A stretch of DNA of 7,176 nucleotides from Escherichia coli (lineage in GTDB: Bacteria > Pseudomonadota > Gammaproteobacteria > Enterobacterales > Enterobacteriaceae). Both the position numbers and the translations under genes were made by a program. The notes beneath the pieces are model-generated. The model made no database searches. It worked only from the letters and a program-made list of their open reading frames with translations, and was not told the origin of the DNA. Below are positions 2,281 to 6,470 of the stretch, in pieces. Position 1 is the stretch's first letter; every line of letters begins with the position of its first letter. Location of the stretch: the NCBI RefSeq assembly GCF_965641715.1, contig NZ_OZ282458.1; one strand, given 5' to 3'.

Positions 2281-2332
2281 ATGCAGCCAGTCTTAGAGAC
2301 GAAAAGTCCGCCCAGAAGACTGACTTTTCAGA

Positions 2333-2539
2333 TCAACCTTCAGCATCTAACTTGTCTATCGCTTTTTTATTGCGCCGATAGGTAGCCATTAGTTCACCAT
2401 CGCCTGATTGTAAGTCACGACCTGCTTGCTCAGCATAGGTATCGTTTACAGTCTTAGCGCCTTTTTTATAGGCCTTTTTAACATCATCAAATCCGGCTTG
2501 GATGACTTCTTTCGGCTTTTCTTGAGGTAATTTAGCCAT
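2333..2539 (-). CDS. Hypothetical 68-aa protein, second gene of a two-gene operon; function unknown
   Basis: ORF MAKLPQEKPKEVIQAGFDDVKKAYKKGAKTVNDTYAEQAGRDLQSGDGELMATYRRNKKAIDKLDAEG. ATG at 2539 preceded by GAGGA with 8-nt spacing. Start overlaps the upstream gene's stop (ATGGCTAA, 8-bp overlap), implying translational coupling. AT-rich like the neighbouring R-M genes. Confidence 0.6.
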   Translation of the reverse strand: MAKLPQEKPKEVIQAGFDDVKKAYKKGAKTVNDTYAEQAGRDLQSGDGELMATYRRNKKAIDKLDAEG

Positions 2540-2915
2540 GCTGTGAATCCTCTATAAGGTTGATTATTTTTCCAACAGATAAGACGGCATCTTCTGTGTC
2601 GCTGATTTTATGATTTATCCAACCGTCCTCTATCTTTAATTTGTTCACTACTCCTAATGTAAAAACAACCTTTTTTTCAGGAAAGAAAATTGCAAAGGTT
2701 CTACTTTTCTCTTTCCAATCAGAGGGCGGCGTCGAACGGAACGCTACATTCCTCGATTTAAGTATCGCTTTGATTTTACTAATTAATTCTTTTTTTTGTT
2801 TATTGCTGAGATTTTTGACGAACCCTTTGCTGAGATTGTCTGTGTAATCATCAAAAGAAATATCAACTGGTTTGTTTTTTTGTTTTTTATCAGATAGATG
2901 AACAATGTTTGACAC
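2532..2915 (-). CDS. Hypothetical 127-aa lysine-rich protein, first gene of the two-gene operon; function unknown
   Basis: ORF ...SNIVHLSDKKQKNKPVDISFDDYTDNLSKGFVKNLSNKQKKELISKIKAILKSRNVAFRSTPPSDWKEKSRTFAIFFPEKKVVFTLGVVNKLKIEDGWINHKISDTEDAVLSVGKIINLIEDSQHG. Initiation codon at 2915 is GTG, preceded by AGGA with 6-nt spacing. No motif I recognise. Confidence 0.6.
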   Translation of the reverse strand: MSNIVHLSDKKQKNKPVDISFDDYTDNLSKGFVKNLSNKQKKELISKIKAILKSRNVAFRSTPPSDWKEKSRTFAIFFPEKKVVFTLGVVNKLKIEDGWINHKISDTEDAVLSVGKIINLIEDSQHG

Positions 2916-3054
2916 TGGATATCCTGCTTTTTGATGAATGAATACTCAGAAGAGTAGCGGAACTGTCTTGTTAGTCACAGAGGTAGAGTATCAATTCTAC
3001 GATAGATGGGTTCGAAGATCCGGCTGAGACCGTTCAGTACGCGGTCGAGATGTT

Positions 3055-3059
3055 ATGTT
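3055..3059. repeat. 5-bp target-site duplication ATGTT, left copy
   Basis: ATGTT immediately outside the GGGG terminus of the left inverted repeat; identical pentamer at 3269-3273. Confidence 0.8.
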
Positions 3060-3097
3060 GGGGTCTGAAGTCCAATGGAACGAAAACGTACGTTAGT
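3060..3097 (+). repeat. Left terminal inverted repeat, Tn3 family
   Basis: GGGGTCTGAAGTCCAATGGAACGAAAACGTACGTTAGT matches the Tn3 right-end IR recalled from pBR322/pUC (GGGGTCTGACGCTCAGTGGAACGAAAACTCACGTTAAG) at about 30 of 38 positions, and is closer to the gamma-delta/Tn1000-type end as I recall it. Confidence 0.8.
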
Positions 3098-3230
3098 GAA
3101 GTAACTGTATGATATATCAAGACATAATAGACATAGAAAAACGCCATCAAAACGGTGTCTTTTTAATCGAAAATTGGCACTTAACGGACGGCATTGTCTA
3201 CTAATCGATTTTTAAGACGATAATTTTCCT

Positions 3231-3268
3231 CTTACCGTACATTTTCGTACGGTTGGCCCTCAAACCCC
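3231..3268 (-). repeat. Right terminal inverted repeat, Tn3 family
   Basis: Reverse complement of 3231-3268 is GGGGTTTGAGGGCCAACCGTACGAAAATGTACGGTAAG, matching the left IR at 28 of 38 positions including the GGGG terminus and the ACGAAAA core. Confidence 0.8.
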
Positions 3269-3273
3269 ATGTT
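3269..3273. repeat. 5-bp target-site duplication ATGTT, right copy
   Basis: ATGTT immediately outside the right IR terminus; identical to 3055-3059. Confidence 0.8.
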
Positions 3274-3519
3274 CAATGTAATGACCGTCGAAATTGCCTT
3301 TACGGGCATGAAGCAACCAGGAGCAATCATTGGCAAAGGTAACTAGAGTTCAATGCATGGTAATCATTTTTGAGCTTGTGATGCATAGAGTTGGTTGCTG
3401 TTCCATTGCGTCTCAAACTCCGTCAAGATGCTCGCCGTAAAAGCGAGCATGTCTAGTATGCCTGTTCCGCTACTGATTTTTGATGGGCGAATTCAGGGCT
3501 GGCTAGCCACCAAGAAAAA

Positions 3520-4581
3520 TTACTTTATTTCATCAAACAGGTGAGATGCAGTATAATAAACGCTTTGATCAAAGCGTCTCTCTGGGCTTAATTTATTTTG
3601 CCCGCCATTTAAAATTATTTCTTTTAATACTGATGGTGGAAGGATGGGTTTTGTTCTTCTTGGGTGATCCATATAAGCTTTTGTTATTTTTCCGTTTAGC
3701 GAGAACTCTTTATCACTTTGATATCCAAAGTTCATCTCAGTATAAATTCTATTGATGTTTGTCTTGTTTTTGCTCGCAATTTCATACACCATTCTGGCGA
3801 GTCTGGCTGATGATCTCATTAGTCTGCTGGCAGATGAATTGTTATATGAGGATCTATCAATAAAGGTTCGACACAAAGCAAAATCACTCCAGATGAATAT
3901 GTCAAAGGCATTTTGATCTAATATTGGGCTCTTGCCTTTTGTTTTCCATAATGGTTGCATTAAAAAAGGTTTCTGGTAATCAAGAAAATTTTCTTGGAAA
4001 GTGTTTAGGCAATTTAATATATTTTCTTTCTTTGAAAGAACTTCAGTTTCATTCCCCCAGTGCTGTATGCTTTCGCATGTGGATTCAAATATTTTTCTTA
4101 TTTCATGGAATTTATCGCTGCAAGAGTGCATTATGCCAAGGGCACAATAAGAAGTGCTTGCAGGTCTTATTACAATCTCTGAACTCCATTCGCTCTCGTT
4201 TTCTTTATATGTCGTGCTATCTGGGAGTACGGTTAATTTTATTTCTAGTGCTTTTAAAAAACTATTGTTTCCTTTTATAACTAGATCTATTCCTTTTATG
4301 TCATCATAAGCATACTGTTGGTATGGTTCATATTTTTTCTCAAATTGAAATTCAAGATCACTATTTTTTAATGTTGTGTTAAAAACGAAGTCAAAAGATA
4401 CTTCTTTGGCATGCACTTTTAAATCCTTATCTAAATAAAGATAAATCGGATTCATTTTGTTGTCTCTCATATAACATGCTAGAGAGGTGGGAAAAGAACT
4501 GTTAAATTGGTTCTTTCCCCACAGATCGCTCTCTTTCCTGTTGGTGTTTTTTAAACCATAAAGAGATTCTATTTTGCTCAC
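3520..4581 (-). CDS. Putative Type II restriction endonuclease, PD-(D/E)xK-like
   Basis: 353-aa ORF divergent from the C5-methyltransferase gene. GTG start at 4581 preceded by AGGAG with 6-nt spacing. Translation contains D99 (GIDLVIK) then 13 residues to E113-I-K115 (ALEIKL), the spacing expected for a PD-(D/E)xK catalytic core. AT-rich. No match recalled to a named enzyme. Confidence is about 0.85 that it is a real gene, about 0.55 for the function. Confidence 0.6.
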   Translation of the reverse strand: MSKIESLYGLKNTNRKESDLWGKNQFNSSFPTSLACYMRDNKMNPIYLYLDKDLKVHAKEVSFDFVFNTTLKNSDLEFQFEKKYEPYQQYAYDDIKGIDLVIKGNNSFLKALEIKLTVLPDSTTYKENESEWSSEIVIRPASTSYCALGIMHSCSDKFHEIRKIFESTCESIQHWGNETEVLSKKENILNCLNTFQENFLDYQKPFLMQPLWKTKGKSPILDQNAFDIFIWSDFALCRTFIDRSSYNNSSASRLMRSSARLARMVYEIASKNKTNINRIYTEMNFGYQSDKEFSLNGKITKAYMDHPRRTKPILPPSVLKEIILNGGQNKLSPERRFDQSVYYTASHLFDEIK

Positions 4582-4668
4582 TTTTTGCTCCTGACGTCAA
4601 TTTATTGACGTCTATGGTGTGTTTCTATATCATGATGTGGAGTGATATGATAATGAGTTTTTTATGTT
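4582..4668. promoter_or_regulatory. Divergent R/M promoter-operator region with tandem TTGACGTCAA palindromes
   Basis: cTGACGTCAAtttaTTGACGTCta at 4591-4614 gives two copies of a palindromic decamer 4 bp apart. The second copy supplies a -35 (TTGACG, 4605-4610) for the plus-strand M promoter; 17-bp spacer; -10 TATCAT at 4628-4633. The R-gene SD lies directly beside the first copy. Confidence 0.5.
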
Positions 4669-5826
4669 ATGAGAATAATTGATCTTTTTAGTGGGTGTGG
4701 GGGGTTATCCCTAGGCTTTTTGAAGGGGGGGTTTGATGTTGTAGGTGCTTATGATTTCTGGGATCCTGCTATTGAATGTTACAGAGATAATTTTAGCCAT
4801 CCGATAAAAAAACTAGATTTGAGCAATGTTGATGATGTGGTGAGGGAGCTTAAAGATATAGACTTCGATATGATTATTGGAGGGCCTCCTTGCCAAGACT
4901 TCAGTCATGCAGGTTTAAGAATTGAAGGTGCTAGAGCTAACTTAACTCGCTCATTTTCAGAAATTATAAAAAGAATAAAGCCAAAGTGGTTTGTGATGGA
5001 AAATGTAGATCGGGCATTAAGAAGTGGTGCCTATTTAGAAGCTCGAGGAATCTTTAAAGAATCAGGGTATGGGTTAACAGAAATTGTTTTGGATGCCAGT
5101 AAGTGTGGTGTTCCGCAAAAAAGAAAAAGATTATTTGTAATTGGAAAGCTTGACGTGAGGGATGGTTTTATCCTTAACGAAGTGATGTGCGGGATATCGA
5201 AAGATAGTATGACAGTTAGAAATTATCTTGGTGATTCATTGGGGATTGAGTATTATTACAGACATCCGAGAAATTATAACAGAAGGGCTATTTTCTCTAT
5301 TGATGAACCTGCGCCAACAGTAAGAGGGGTTAATAGACCGATACCTGATGGATATTTAGGGCATGCAGGCGATCCTGTCAGTATTTCTGAGAATGTAAGG
5401 CCATTAACAACCTTTGAAAGAGCAAGATTGCAAACATTTCCTGAAGACTTTAAATTTAAAGGTGCAAAAACAAATTTGGAGCAAATGATAGGTAATGCTG
5501 TTCCGGTTGAGTTAGCAAAATATGTTGCGGTGACAATCATGGAGTATGAAAAAAAACAAGTAAAAGGTATTTATGATAAAGAAGGCTTTAGGGCGTGGTT
5601 GCTGAATGAAAAGAAACTAACAAAAAGAACCTCTAGCGATATTATATCTAGATGTTGCAGAGGTGTTTCATTTTTTGATTCAGAGGGGGTGGATTTTTAT
5701 AACTGTGAAATAGATGAAATTATTATGAAACTGGAAAGGCTTGAATCGTTTGTCAGGCTTGGGGTTAGCCTGAAGTCTCAGTTAAGAAGGGCTTTTAAAT
5801 TATATTACGAATATTGTCGAAGGTAA
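4669..5826 (+). CDS. DNA (cytosine-5)-methyltransferase with a C-terminal extension of about 95 aa
   Basis: All canonical C5-MTase motifs in order: motif I FSGCGG (aa 7-12), motif IV GGPPCQDFS (catalytic Cys75), motif VI ENV (aa 111-113), motif VIII QKRKR (aa 150-154), short target-recognition region, motif IX RPLTTFERARLQTFPEDF, motif X GNAVPVELAKYVA. About 95 further residues follow motif X. Confidence 0.92.
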   Translation: MRIIDLFSGCGGLSLGFLKGGFDVVGAYDFWDPAIECYRDNFSHPIKKLDLSNVDDVVRELKDIDFDMIIGGPPCQDFSHAGLRIEGARANLTRSFSEIIKRIKPKWFVMENVDRALRSGAYLEARGIFKESGYGLTEIVLDASKCGVPQKRKRLFVIGKLDVRDGFILNEVMCGISKDSMTVRNYLGDSLGIEYYYRHPRNYNRRAIFSIDEPAPTVRGVNRPIPDGYLGHAGDPVSISENVRPLTTFERARLQTFPEDFKFKGAKTNLEQMIGNAVPVELAKYVAVTIMEYEKKQVKGIYDKEGFRAWLLNEKKLTKRTSSDIISRCCRGVSFFDSEGVDFYNCEIDEIIMKLERLESFVRLGVSLKSQLRRAFKLYYEYCRR

Positions 5827-5886
5827 TAAATACGAATTTATGTCTCTCAGGGGAGGGGGAGGGGATAAAAAGATCAAAGGATCCTC

Positions 5887-5915
5887 TTGTGATCCTTTTT
5901 TTCTGCGCGTAATCT
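5887..5915 (+). promoter_or_regulatory. RNAII (primer) promoter: -35 TTGTGA (5887-5892), 17-bp spacer, -10 TAATCT (5910-5915)
   Basis: Collinear with the pMB1/ColE1 RNAII promoter (cttcTTGAGAtcc...cgTAATCTgctgcttGcaaac). Predicted start at G5923. Confidence 0.7.
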
Positions 5916-5922
5916 GCTGCCT

Positions 5923-6470
5923 GTAAACAAAAAAACCACCGCTACCAACGGTGGTTTGTTTGCCGGAATCTAGAGCTACCAACTCTTTCTTCCGAAGGTA
6001 ACTGGCTTGGTGGAGCACAGATACCAAATACTGTCCTTCTAGTGTAGCCGCAGTTAGGCCACCACTTCAAGAACTCTTAATATCTCAATCCACCTTGTCC
6101 AGTTACCAGTGGCTGCTGCCAGTGGCGCTTTGTCGTGTCTTACCGGGTTGGACTCAAGACGATAGTTACCGGATAAGGCGCAGCGGTCGGGCTGAACGGG
6201 GGGTTCGTGCACACAGCCCAGCTTGGAGCGAACGACCTACACCGAACTGAGATACCAACAGCGTGAGCTATGAGAAAGCGCCACGCTTCCCGAAGGGAGA
6301 AAGGCGGACAGGTATCCGGTAAGCGGCAGGGTCGGAACAGGAGAGCGCACGAGGGAGCTTCCAGGGGGAAACGCCTGGTATCTTTAAGTCCTGTCGGGTT
6401 TCGCCACCTCTGACTTGAGCGTCGATTTTTGTGATGCTCGTCAGGGGGGCGGAGCCTATGGAAAAACGCC
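5923..6470 (+). ncRNA. RNAII replication primer precursor of the ColE1-type replicon (3' end approximate)
   Basis: Long near-identity to the pMB1/pUC ori sequence (GTAAACAAAAAAACCACCGCTACC...GGGGAAACGCCTGGTATCTTTA...GGAGCCTATGGAAAAACGCCAGC) with clustered substitutions in the 5' stem-loops. Confidence 0.8.
5925..6034 (-). ncRNA. RNAI antisense copy-number control RNA (about 108 nt)
   Basis: Reverse complement begins ACAGTATTTGGTATCTGTGCTCCACCAAGCCAGTTACC... and ends at the GCGGTGGTTTTTTTGTTTAC terminator, as in pMB1 RNAI. Promoter on the minus strand: -35 TTGAAG and -10 TACACT within 6035-6070. Confidence 0.8.

Follow-up and report, generated by a model that had tools for sequence, protein, structure and literature searches.

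A core-binding-like C-terminal methylase domain as the probable on-board controller of a GRCGYC-type restriction–modification system on an Escherichia coli plasmid

Whether a new host survives the arrival of a mobile restriction–modification (R–M) system is decided by the relative timing of methylase and nuclease expression. Reviews of the field recognize four classes of control, namely helix–turn–helix (HTH) controller proteins, methylases with an N-terminal HTH fusion, promoter methylation, and antisense RNA (PMC3874152, PMC12707154). Here, we consider a divergent R–M pair in a 7,176-nt stretch of Escherichia coli plasmid DNA (contig NZ_OZ282458.1 of assembly GCF_965641715.1; this whole stretch is referred to as the window), and in particular the C-terminal tail of its 385-residue C5-cytosine methyltransferase (4669–5826, + strand). 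An earlier note on this sequence had proposed that the tail might be a regulatory, DNA-binding domain acting through the palindromes between the two genes. Our comparative analysis supports this proposal, through the modularity of the tail, its co-occurrence with an operator-like palindrome, its predicted fold, and its homology to part of M1.LlaJI, a methylase with a known regulatory role. Because a conserved four-helix domain is almost always accompanied by a palindrome of target sites in the methylase promoter, the tail is most likely an on-board controller, that is, it is probably the transcriptional control module of a GRCGYC-type (BsaHI/HgiDI/HindV-like) R–M system.

The closest described systems share parts of this arrangement. 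Methylases of the SsoII, Ecl18kI, EcoRII, MspI, and ScrFIA kind have a tethered regulatory domain that acts on a palindrome in their own promoter, a logic that the window methylase would share, and in divergent SsoII-type systems with facing promoters, methylase binding shifts transcription towards the endonuclease gene, R (PMC3874152, PMC3695355, PMC12707154). In these systems, however, the regulatory domain is an N-terminal HTH and the operator is unrelated to the methylation site, whereas the window methylase has a C-terminal, four-helix, core-binding-like domain, no HTH, and a putative operator composed of two methylation sites; its catalytic motif I starts at residue 5, and no HTH match was found. 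The C proteins (C.PvuII, C.AhdI, and C.Kpn2I) are comparable with the free-standing relatives of the tail, which are ~80 residues long, linked to R–M genes, and encoded beside palindromic promoter elements. C proteins, though, act as dimers of the XRE-type HTH class on C-boxes, and their genes usually share a transcript with R, while the tail relatives are without an HTH, are usually co-translated with the methylase gene, M, and lie beside an operator that contains the target sites of the system itself. An XRE-type HTH (HTH_3-like) was absent from the tail, from 94 of its relatives, and from the two small open reading frames (ORFs) near the R–M pair; at the Pfam level, the locus indeed has neither the C protein nor the N-terminal HTH whose absence the earlier note had pointed out. 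In CfrBI, as in the window, cognate target sites overlap the −35 element of the methylase between divergent genes (PMC12707154), but CfrBI relies on a single site and lacks an accessory domain of its own, whereas in the window a pair of sites with fixed spacing is joined by additional invariant bases and a dedicated protein module. The recently described R–M repressor RptR was considered and set aside, as both the protein and its site (TAGCTA) are different. We found no description of a core-binding-like domain in R–M control in the literature searched. By analogy, the window methylase would function as a dual-role methylase-repressor like those of SsoII and EcoRII, with M1.LlaJI as the most specific parallel.

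LlaJI recognizes GACGC/GCGTC, and its promoter holds two LlaJI sites (PMC1459862); its two methylases control the operon via recognition sequences that its promoter contains (PMC11779793). M1.LlaJI is among six C5-methylases with an experimentally confirmed regulatory function and, according to these secondary sources, represses its own gene (PMC3695355; PMC3978073). A scan of viral contigs for the operator pattern (16 bases) described below returned 80 loci, to which a census with hidden Markov models (HMMs) was then applied. This gave ten loci with the tail domain; the others, which have neither the domain nor a methylase nearby, are probably chance matches to a 16-base pattern. Five of the ten are of the HindVP type. 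In the other five, a methylase of 468–501 residues carries the domain N-terminally and a second C5-methylase comes next; at locus L110, the gene after these encodes a McrB-like “Type II REase.” A tblastn search of plasmids with the L110 methylase returned pNP40 of Lactococcus lactis (66.7% identity over residues 15–479), in a region annotated as the LlaJI operon, M1–M2–R1–R2. Residues 1–79 of M1.LlaJI align with the tail family with an hhalign probability of 99.4% (E = 5.9e-22), and the M1.LlaJI promoter reads CACAACCCATTTAC-GGCGTCAA-ATTC-TTGACGCC-GTAAATGGGTTGTG, followed by a −10-like ATAGAAT, which is the same operator as in the window. Sequence comparison thus identifies the tail as a homolog of the accessory domain of a methylase-repressor with the same operator, and the operator core shared with the window takes the form GGCGTCAA-N4-TTGACGCC in the M1.LlaJI promoter. 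Promoters with two inverted cognate sites are found in the window (4593–4612), in pNP40 (L181, 5426–5445), and across 23 aligned loci. At all LlaJI-type loci, the outer operator positions are fixed as G...C, as GACGC demands, indicating that these positions follow the specificity of the cognate enzyme. The two systems differ in several respects. The domain is N-terminal in M1.LlaJI and C-terminal in the window methylase, and the methylase lineages are different, as the tblastn search from the LlaJI side did not return the plasmid family of the window. The LlaJI operon comprises four genes, among them those for a McrBC-like nuclease and for two methylases that are each specific to one strand, whereas the system of the window is a Type IIP pair in divergent orientation whose nuclease belongs to the HindVP family. 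In addition, a 48-bp perfect palindrome encloses the operator of pNP40 but not that of the window.

The catalytic core of the window methylase occupies residues 1–290 (4669–5538; motifs I–X; PF00145, E = 2e-61; NCBIfam TIGR00675), and of the ten motifs that characterize C5-methylases, DLFSGCGG (I), GGPPCQDFS (IV), MENV (VI), and GNAVPV (X) can be read in its translation. Beyond it, from codon 291 (first base 5539) to the TAA stop at 5824–5826, no Pfam model covers any part of the protein. The ~95-residue extension that the earlier note had described is therefore real in length, with 95 codons past the end of the PF00145 match, and tail-less relatives that are characterized or annotated measure 300–330 residues; the chance of 95 stop-free codons at the local base composition is ~1e-4. 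It comprises a junction (residues 291–302, 5539–5574), in which the end of the motif-X helix gives way to a short variable break, and the four-helix domain (residues 303–384; 5575–5826 with the last residue and the stop codon). Relatives at 54–59% identity, from Roseburia and many metagenomes, are 383–393 residues long, with alignments that run through the tail. The same R–M pair is present on a Morganella morganii plasmid, with 77% identity between the methylases and 49% between the tails. Between E. coli and Morganella, nonsynonymous divergence (pN) is 0.30 against a synonymous divergence (pS) of 0.83 in the tail, compared with 0.12 and 0.67 in the core. The junction is the most variable stretch of the alignments (pN 0.43), and is also the point at which relatives are split into two genes and at which one Morganella record is frameshifted. 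Two sister Morganella plasmids differ exactly there: NZ_CP066141 (L004/L005) has a run of six A, one base shorter, and an intact 397-residue methylase including the tail, whereas NZ_CP066778 has seven A (L001, 4089–4095), ending the methylase at 319 residues with the tail in another frame. Slippage, a pseudogene, or an error of sequencing could each account for this difference. The tail has also been described as basic and cysteine-containing; it is basic, though mildly so (isoelectric point 9.1, 20 Lys + Arg against 15 Asp + Glu), and its four cysteines are irrelevant, as none is conserved even in the 77%-identical Morganella homolog, which rules out a zinc- or cysteine-based domain. Nor is the tail a structural part of the catalytic fold that is normal for this subfamily, since many active relatives lack it. 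A set of ~600-residue proteins (P0089–P0095) combines two tandem C5-methylase domains without the tail, the first half being ~46% identical to the window methylase.

The tail is a modular, conserved, and separable domain. A word-indexed search with the tail alone gave near-identical fragments only, and an exhaustive profile search was needed; with a profile built from two tails, run against 1.84 billion representative proteins at E ≤ 1e-3, it returned 403 relatives, nearly all of them free-standing proteins of 75–100 residues. The family has no Pfam domain and no informative name. Searches of the tail against Pfam, NCBIfam, PHROGs, PADLOC, and PDB sequences gave no significant match, and a model or name for the domain was absent from the first four of these. 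The gene typically lies directly 3′ of a methylase of 300–330 residues in HindVP-type systems (L011, L013, L010, L097, and L099), with an overlap of 1, 4, or 8 nt at the methylase stop codon (for example, ATGA or ATGAATGA), and at L006 it is divergent from the R–M operon. In another methylase lineage, the domain is fused N-terminally (P0262 and P0263) or encoded just upstream (L014). These free-standing and fused contexts mark the region around residue 300 as a natural point of gene fusion or fission.

Three loci depart from the usual pattern. In Butyrivibrio sp. LB2008 (L088), the small gene (1818–2075) comes before R and M and overlaps R, the classical position of a C gene. Here the spacer of the promoter contains TTGACGTCAA, while TTGACGTCATG coincides with the start codon of the small gene (region 1776–1822), and these GACGTC sites stand in place of the palindrome with 14-bp spacing found elsewhere. 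At L098, a free-standing member (4001–4237) follows two C5-methylases (353 and 354 residues) and a 487-residue Type II endonuclease of another family, an organization that we take to resemble that of HgaI. This locus has no GRCGYC site, but a direct repeat with two copies of TTGACG, 17 bp apart, lies upstream of the first methylase (330–375); L014 has TTGACG and TTGACA 9 bp apart. L098, L014, and L088 hint that TTGACG is an element tied to the domain, although they are only three loci and TTGACG is also a natural −35 box.

AlphaFold2 predicts the tail, on a 94-sequence alignment, to be a four-helix bundle with high confidence (pLDDT 95.5, pTM 0.85). In Foldseek searches of the AlphaFold database, the free-standing relatives were returned first, followed by many C5-methylases of 353–578 residues, and then by FliZ and Xer recombinases. 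The modeled fold is that of the core-binding domain of tyrosine recombinases, a known DNA-binding domain. The near-invariant polar residues of the tail family lie on helix 2 (D26, S29, R30, and R33) and helix 4 (S72, Q73, and R76), which may correspond to helices B and D, the two that enter the major groove in the core-binding domains of Cre and lambda Int. In a model of the full-length protein, the motif-X helix (residues 280–298) is followed by a five-residue break of lower pLDDT and then by the tail helices (304–384). FliZ, MrpR, and SroF are recombinase-derived DNA binders and, with the core-binding (SAM-like) domains of the recombinases themselves, are the nearest structural parallels. 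The tail differs from all of these in having no recombinase catalytic domain, in its association with methylases, and in showing no detectable sequence relationship. It did not match the Pfam Phage_int_SAM model at the family threshold, and since any sequence link is sub-threshold, the term core-binding-like is used here for the fold alone, and the domain is not assigned to these Pfam families. No HTH family was detected in the tail or the 94 relatives with Pfam, and searches of NCBIfam, PHROG, and PADLOC were also empty. A role in Xer/cer plasmid resolution, which the fold might suggest, was rejected because the module sits with R–M genes in chromosomes of many phyla and not in ColE1 backbones.

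Within the 87-bp intergenic region, the palindrome GACGTCAAtttaTTGACGTC (4593–4612) reads GACGTCAAT-tt-ATTGACGTC and consists of two GRCGYC sites, 14 bp apart, in an inverted repeat. When four divergent loci were compared, it was the sole conserved intergenic block. Over 23 loci from many phyla, the operator consensus is GRCGTCAA-N4-TTGACGYC, with 14 of its 20 bp invariant. The outer degenerate positions in GRCGYC systems are mixed, as the recognition sequence allows (12 A and 11 G; 10 T and 13 C), while the inner Y/R are always T/A, and the flanking AA/TT are invariant. Among the intergenic repeats, conservation is confined to this palindrome; the remaining ones (a direct repeat at 4572–4590 and a palindrome at 4624–4641) are not conserved in the relatives. 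The right half of the operator provides the −35 box, TTGACG, of a candidate methylase promoter (4605–4633, + strand; 17-nt spacer, −10 TATCAT, 10/12 consensus positions), which is identified by consensus match and is not mapped. Its left half adjoins the ribosome-binding site of R. A candidate endonuclease promoter (4647–4675, − strand; −35 TTCTCA, −10 TATCAT, 9/12) faces that of the methylase, and its −10 element and the block gatatgataatgag are kept in Morganella; transcripts from it would cross the operator ahead of the R start. Two promoter layouts are seen across the 23 loci. In the first, found in the window and at most loci, the right half-site is the −35 box, with a good −10 element 16–17 nt downstream; in the second (L033, L036, L038, L040, and L099), there is a separate upstream −35 box, TTGACA, and the AT-rich center of the operator is the −10 element. 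The operator overlaps the core promoter of the methylase in both layouts, and as its inner bases are invariant in the second layout too, −35 function alone cannot explain their constancy. Some operators are enclosed in longer perfect palindromes with arms of up to 22 nt and non-conserved sequence (L181 5412–5459, in pNP40; L012 459–506; L006 ~5440–5477; L033; L026; L021), which may reflect cruciform formation or locus-specific extra contacts. As they occur at only ~6 of the 23 loci and the window operator has no such extension, they were rejected as a general feature.

To relate the domain to the operator, we searched for HindVP-family endonucleases in a set of genomes with one representative per species. 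At each of the 80 loci obtained, the endonuclease, methylase, and tail domain were located by HMMs, and all pairs of GRCGYC sites were listed. The domain is present at 18 of the 80 loci, free-standing after M at 12, fused to the methylase C-terminus at five, and upstream of R at one. Immediately upstream of M, two GRCGYC sites with a spacing of exactly 14 bp were found at 17 of the 18 loci with the domain and at only 1 of the 62 without it (Fisher exact p = 3e-15). In that single exception (L028), the methylase lies at a contig edge, and the domain was probably cut off. The loci without the domain are almost all tandem operons in the order R, then M, most of them without any GRCGYC site in 11 kb; by gene order and length, this class appears to be of the BsaHI/HgiDI/HindV type, with BsaHI and HgiDI themselves not among the sampled loci. 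Within the clade nearest to the window, the domain and the palindrome are jointly absent in L019, L022, L024, L035, and others, so that the two appear to be gained or lost as a unit.

On these grounds, we propose that as the methylase accumulates, two molecules would occupy the palindrome GACGTCAA-N4-TTGACGTC (4593–4612). The right half of this palindrome being the candidate −35 box of the methylase, occupancy would shut the methylase promoter in negative autoregulation. The catalytic domain would probably read or methylate the two GRCGYC sites, while the tail would probably contact the invariant inner TCAA/TTGA. In the divergent layout, the opposing candidate endonuclease promoter would then be relieved, as in SsoII/Ecl18kI. 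M.BsaHI methylates the central C of its target (PMC2413257), and by homology, the methylated C would be position 5 of TTGACG in the −35 hexamer. Since the operator consists of two cognate target sites, which are kept despite the avoidance of such sites elsewhere, and the methylated C would fall within the hexamer, the signal probably includes the methylation state of the operator, in line with reports on LlaJI. Binding of M1.LlaJI to its promoter is reportedly enhanced by M2.LlaJI methylation, a result ascribed to O'Driscoll et al. in 2005 that we use as a lead only and not as a result of this study. More tentatively, and with some doubt, one may suppose that the ~400 relatives form an undescribed, non-HTH family of R–M controllers that read methylation state, with binding to the half-site TTGA(C)G dependent on the 5-methyl mark set by the cognate methylase at its CpG. 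If so, a GRCGYC or GACGC system would gauge its own modification activity and not protein level alone, through a family that has been taken up either as a separate gene or by fusion to one or other end of the methylase.

A number of observations weigh against the tail as a DNA-reading controller. The endonuclease promoter is a 9/12 consensus match only, and the repressing part of M1.LlaJI may be other than its N-terminal domain. The resemblance to core-binding domains in the models is at fold level only: Phage_int_SAM_1 matches at E ≤ 0.1 in 5 of the 94 relatives are sub-threshold (best 7.9e-3), and hhalign found no link to residues 1–100 of XerD (probability 0.8%). In the full-length model (pTM 0.73), the orientation of the tail towards the catalytic cleft is not well defined. 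Finally, because the outer R/Y positions of the operator track the target of the enzyme, the methylase catalytic domain or methylation, and not the tail, probably does the reading for at least part of the operator. This could be taken further, to a purely epigenetic control by the catalytic domain as in CfrBI, in which promoter activity is set by nothing more than methylation of the two target sites in the −35 region, or their occupancy by the methylase core; the tail would then be a dimerization or cooperativity module that helps two methylases to sit on sites 14 bp apart, or a bridge to another protein, and would not read DNA sequence. The correspondence between outer positions and R–M specificity (mixed for GRCGYC, always G...C for GACGC), the retention of the operator sites in the face of strong GRCGYC avoidance, a methylated C that would lie inside the −35 hexamer by comparison with M.BsaHI (PMC2413257), and the CfrBI precedent (PMC12707154) are all consistent with this explanation. 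However, the inner TCAA/TTGA and the 14-bp spacing are invariant even in the second promoter layout (L033, L036, L038, L040, and L099), a constancy which neither target sequence nor −35 function can explain. The predicted fold is also that of a DNA-binding domain, with invariant Arg, Ser, and Gln on two helices, the free-standing gene can be divergent (L006) or upstream of R (L088) in the manner of a regulator, and loci with the domain but without GRCGYC still carry repeated TTGACG. We therefore regard control without sequence reading by the tail as unlikely, though deserving of consideration.

It is much harder to reconcile our results with the tail as a general catalytic accessory, an extra DNA clamp or affinity domain that improves methylation at all GRCGYC sites, plays no part in gene control, and accompanies the palindrome incidentally. 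In recombinases, core-binding and catalytic domains do clamp DNA together, and the short linker that tethers the tail directly after motif X, as well as the translational coupling of free-standing tail genes to M, would suit such a role. Yet 62 of the 80 related systems, including the tandem R-then-M class to which the active BsaHI and HgiDI enzymes appear to belong, do without the domain, which appears to be gained and lost along with the operator and not with the methylase, and which is found at the opposite terminus of an unrelated methylase lineage as well; we consider this explanation improbable. An artefact of sequencing, by frameshift or read-through into non-coding DNA, would fit the one Morganella record that is frameshifted exactly at the junction, with its 319-residue methylase. 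Many independent assemblies, however, have the same frame as the window, the sister plasmid from Morganella encodes an intact methylase, the tail has a confidently predicted fold and hundreds of homologs, and its pN is well below its pS, so that this possibility, which the earlier note had also raised, is negligible and we rule it out.

If the tail is indeed a transcriptional control module, it would represent a further solution beyond the four reviewed classes, in which a domain resembling the core-binding domain of recombinases acts at an operator of two cognate sites. The reported regulatory function of M1.LlaJI would then have a suggested structural basis, and the finding would give a name to ~400 “hypothetical” small proteins, and explain how a potentially lethal nuclease is controlled on very common small plasmids of E. 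coli, Shigella, and Salmonella. Such a repressor–operator pair would be compact, portable, and possibly methylation-sensitive.

The partner of the methylase is a HindVP/BsaHI-family endonuclease of 353 residues (3520–4581, − strand), annotated as HindVP in RefSeq, with PF09519 in its homologs. It starts with GTG, and its ribosome-binding site, AGGAG, adjoins the operator. The BsaHI/HgiDI family recognizes GRCGYC, and the motifs WGKNQF, ExK, and SPERRFD have been described for GRCGYC endonucleases (PMC2413257). All three are present in the window enzyme (ExK as E-I-K), which suggests that the system recognizes and methylates GRCGYC. The scarcity of GRCGYC in the window agrees with this specificity: there are three sites, at 2728, 4593, and 4607, the latter two forming the operator. 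With three sites in 7.2 kb here and none in 11 kb at many related loci, avoidance of the self-target appears to be strong. The third site, GGCGTC at 2728, lies inside a hypothetical ORF of 127 residues. Genes for very-short-patch repair (Vsr) adjoin several GRCGYC systems, for example at L013 (7437–7865) and L099 (1305–1745), and would fit the repair of T:G mismatches arising from deamination of 5-methylcytosine.

The window itself is a mobilizable plasmid of the ColE1 type, with mobilization genes, a Rop ORF, and RNAI. The R–M pair lies in a cassette of ~35% GC within a backbone of ~55% GC, and this low-GC block (2300–5850), which also includes two upstream hypothetical ORFs (2333–2539 and 2532–2915, both − strand) with neither a Pfam match nor an HTH, looks like an acquired insert. 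A 2.6-kb cassette is shared, at 99.5–99.9% identity, by 18 PLSDB plasmids from E. coli, other Escherichia, and Salmonella. The 385-residue methylase is common to many 99.8%-identical plasmids of E. coli, Shigella, and Salmonella, and the identical protein is recorded on more than 1000 contigs. Downstream of M, a terminator-like hairpin (5876–5898) lies ~50 bp from the methylase stop codon and the ColE1 RNAI gene (5927–6032, − strand; Rfam RF00106, 65.9 bits) ~100 bp from it, so that the cassette adjoins the replication-control region of the plasmid.

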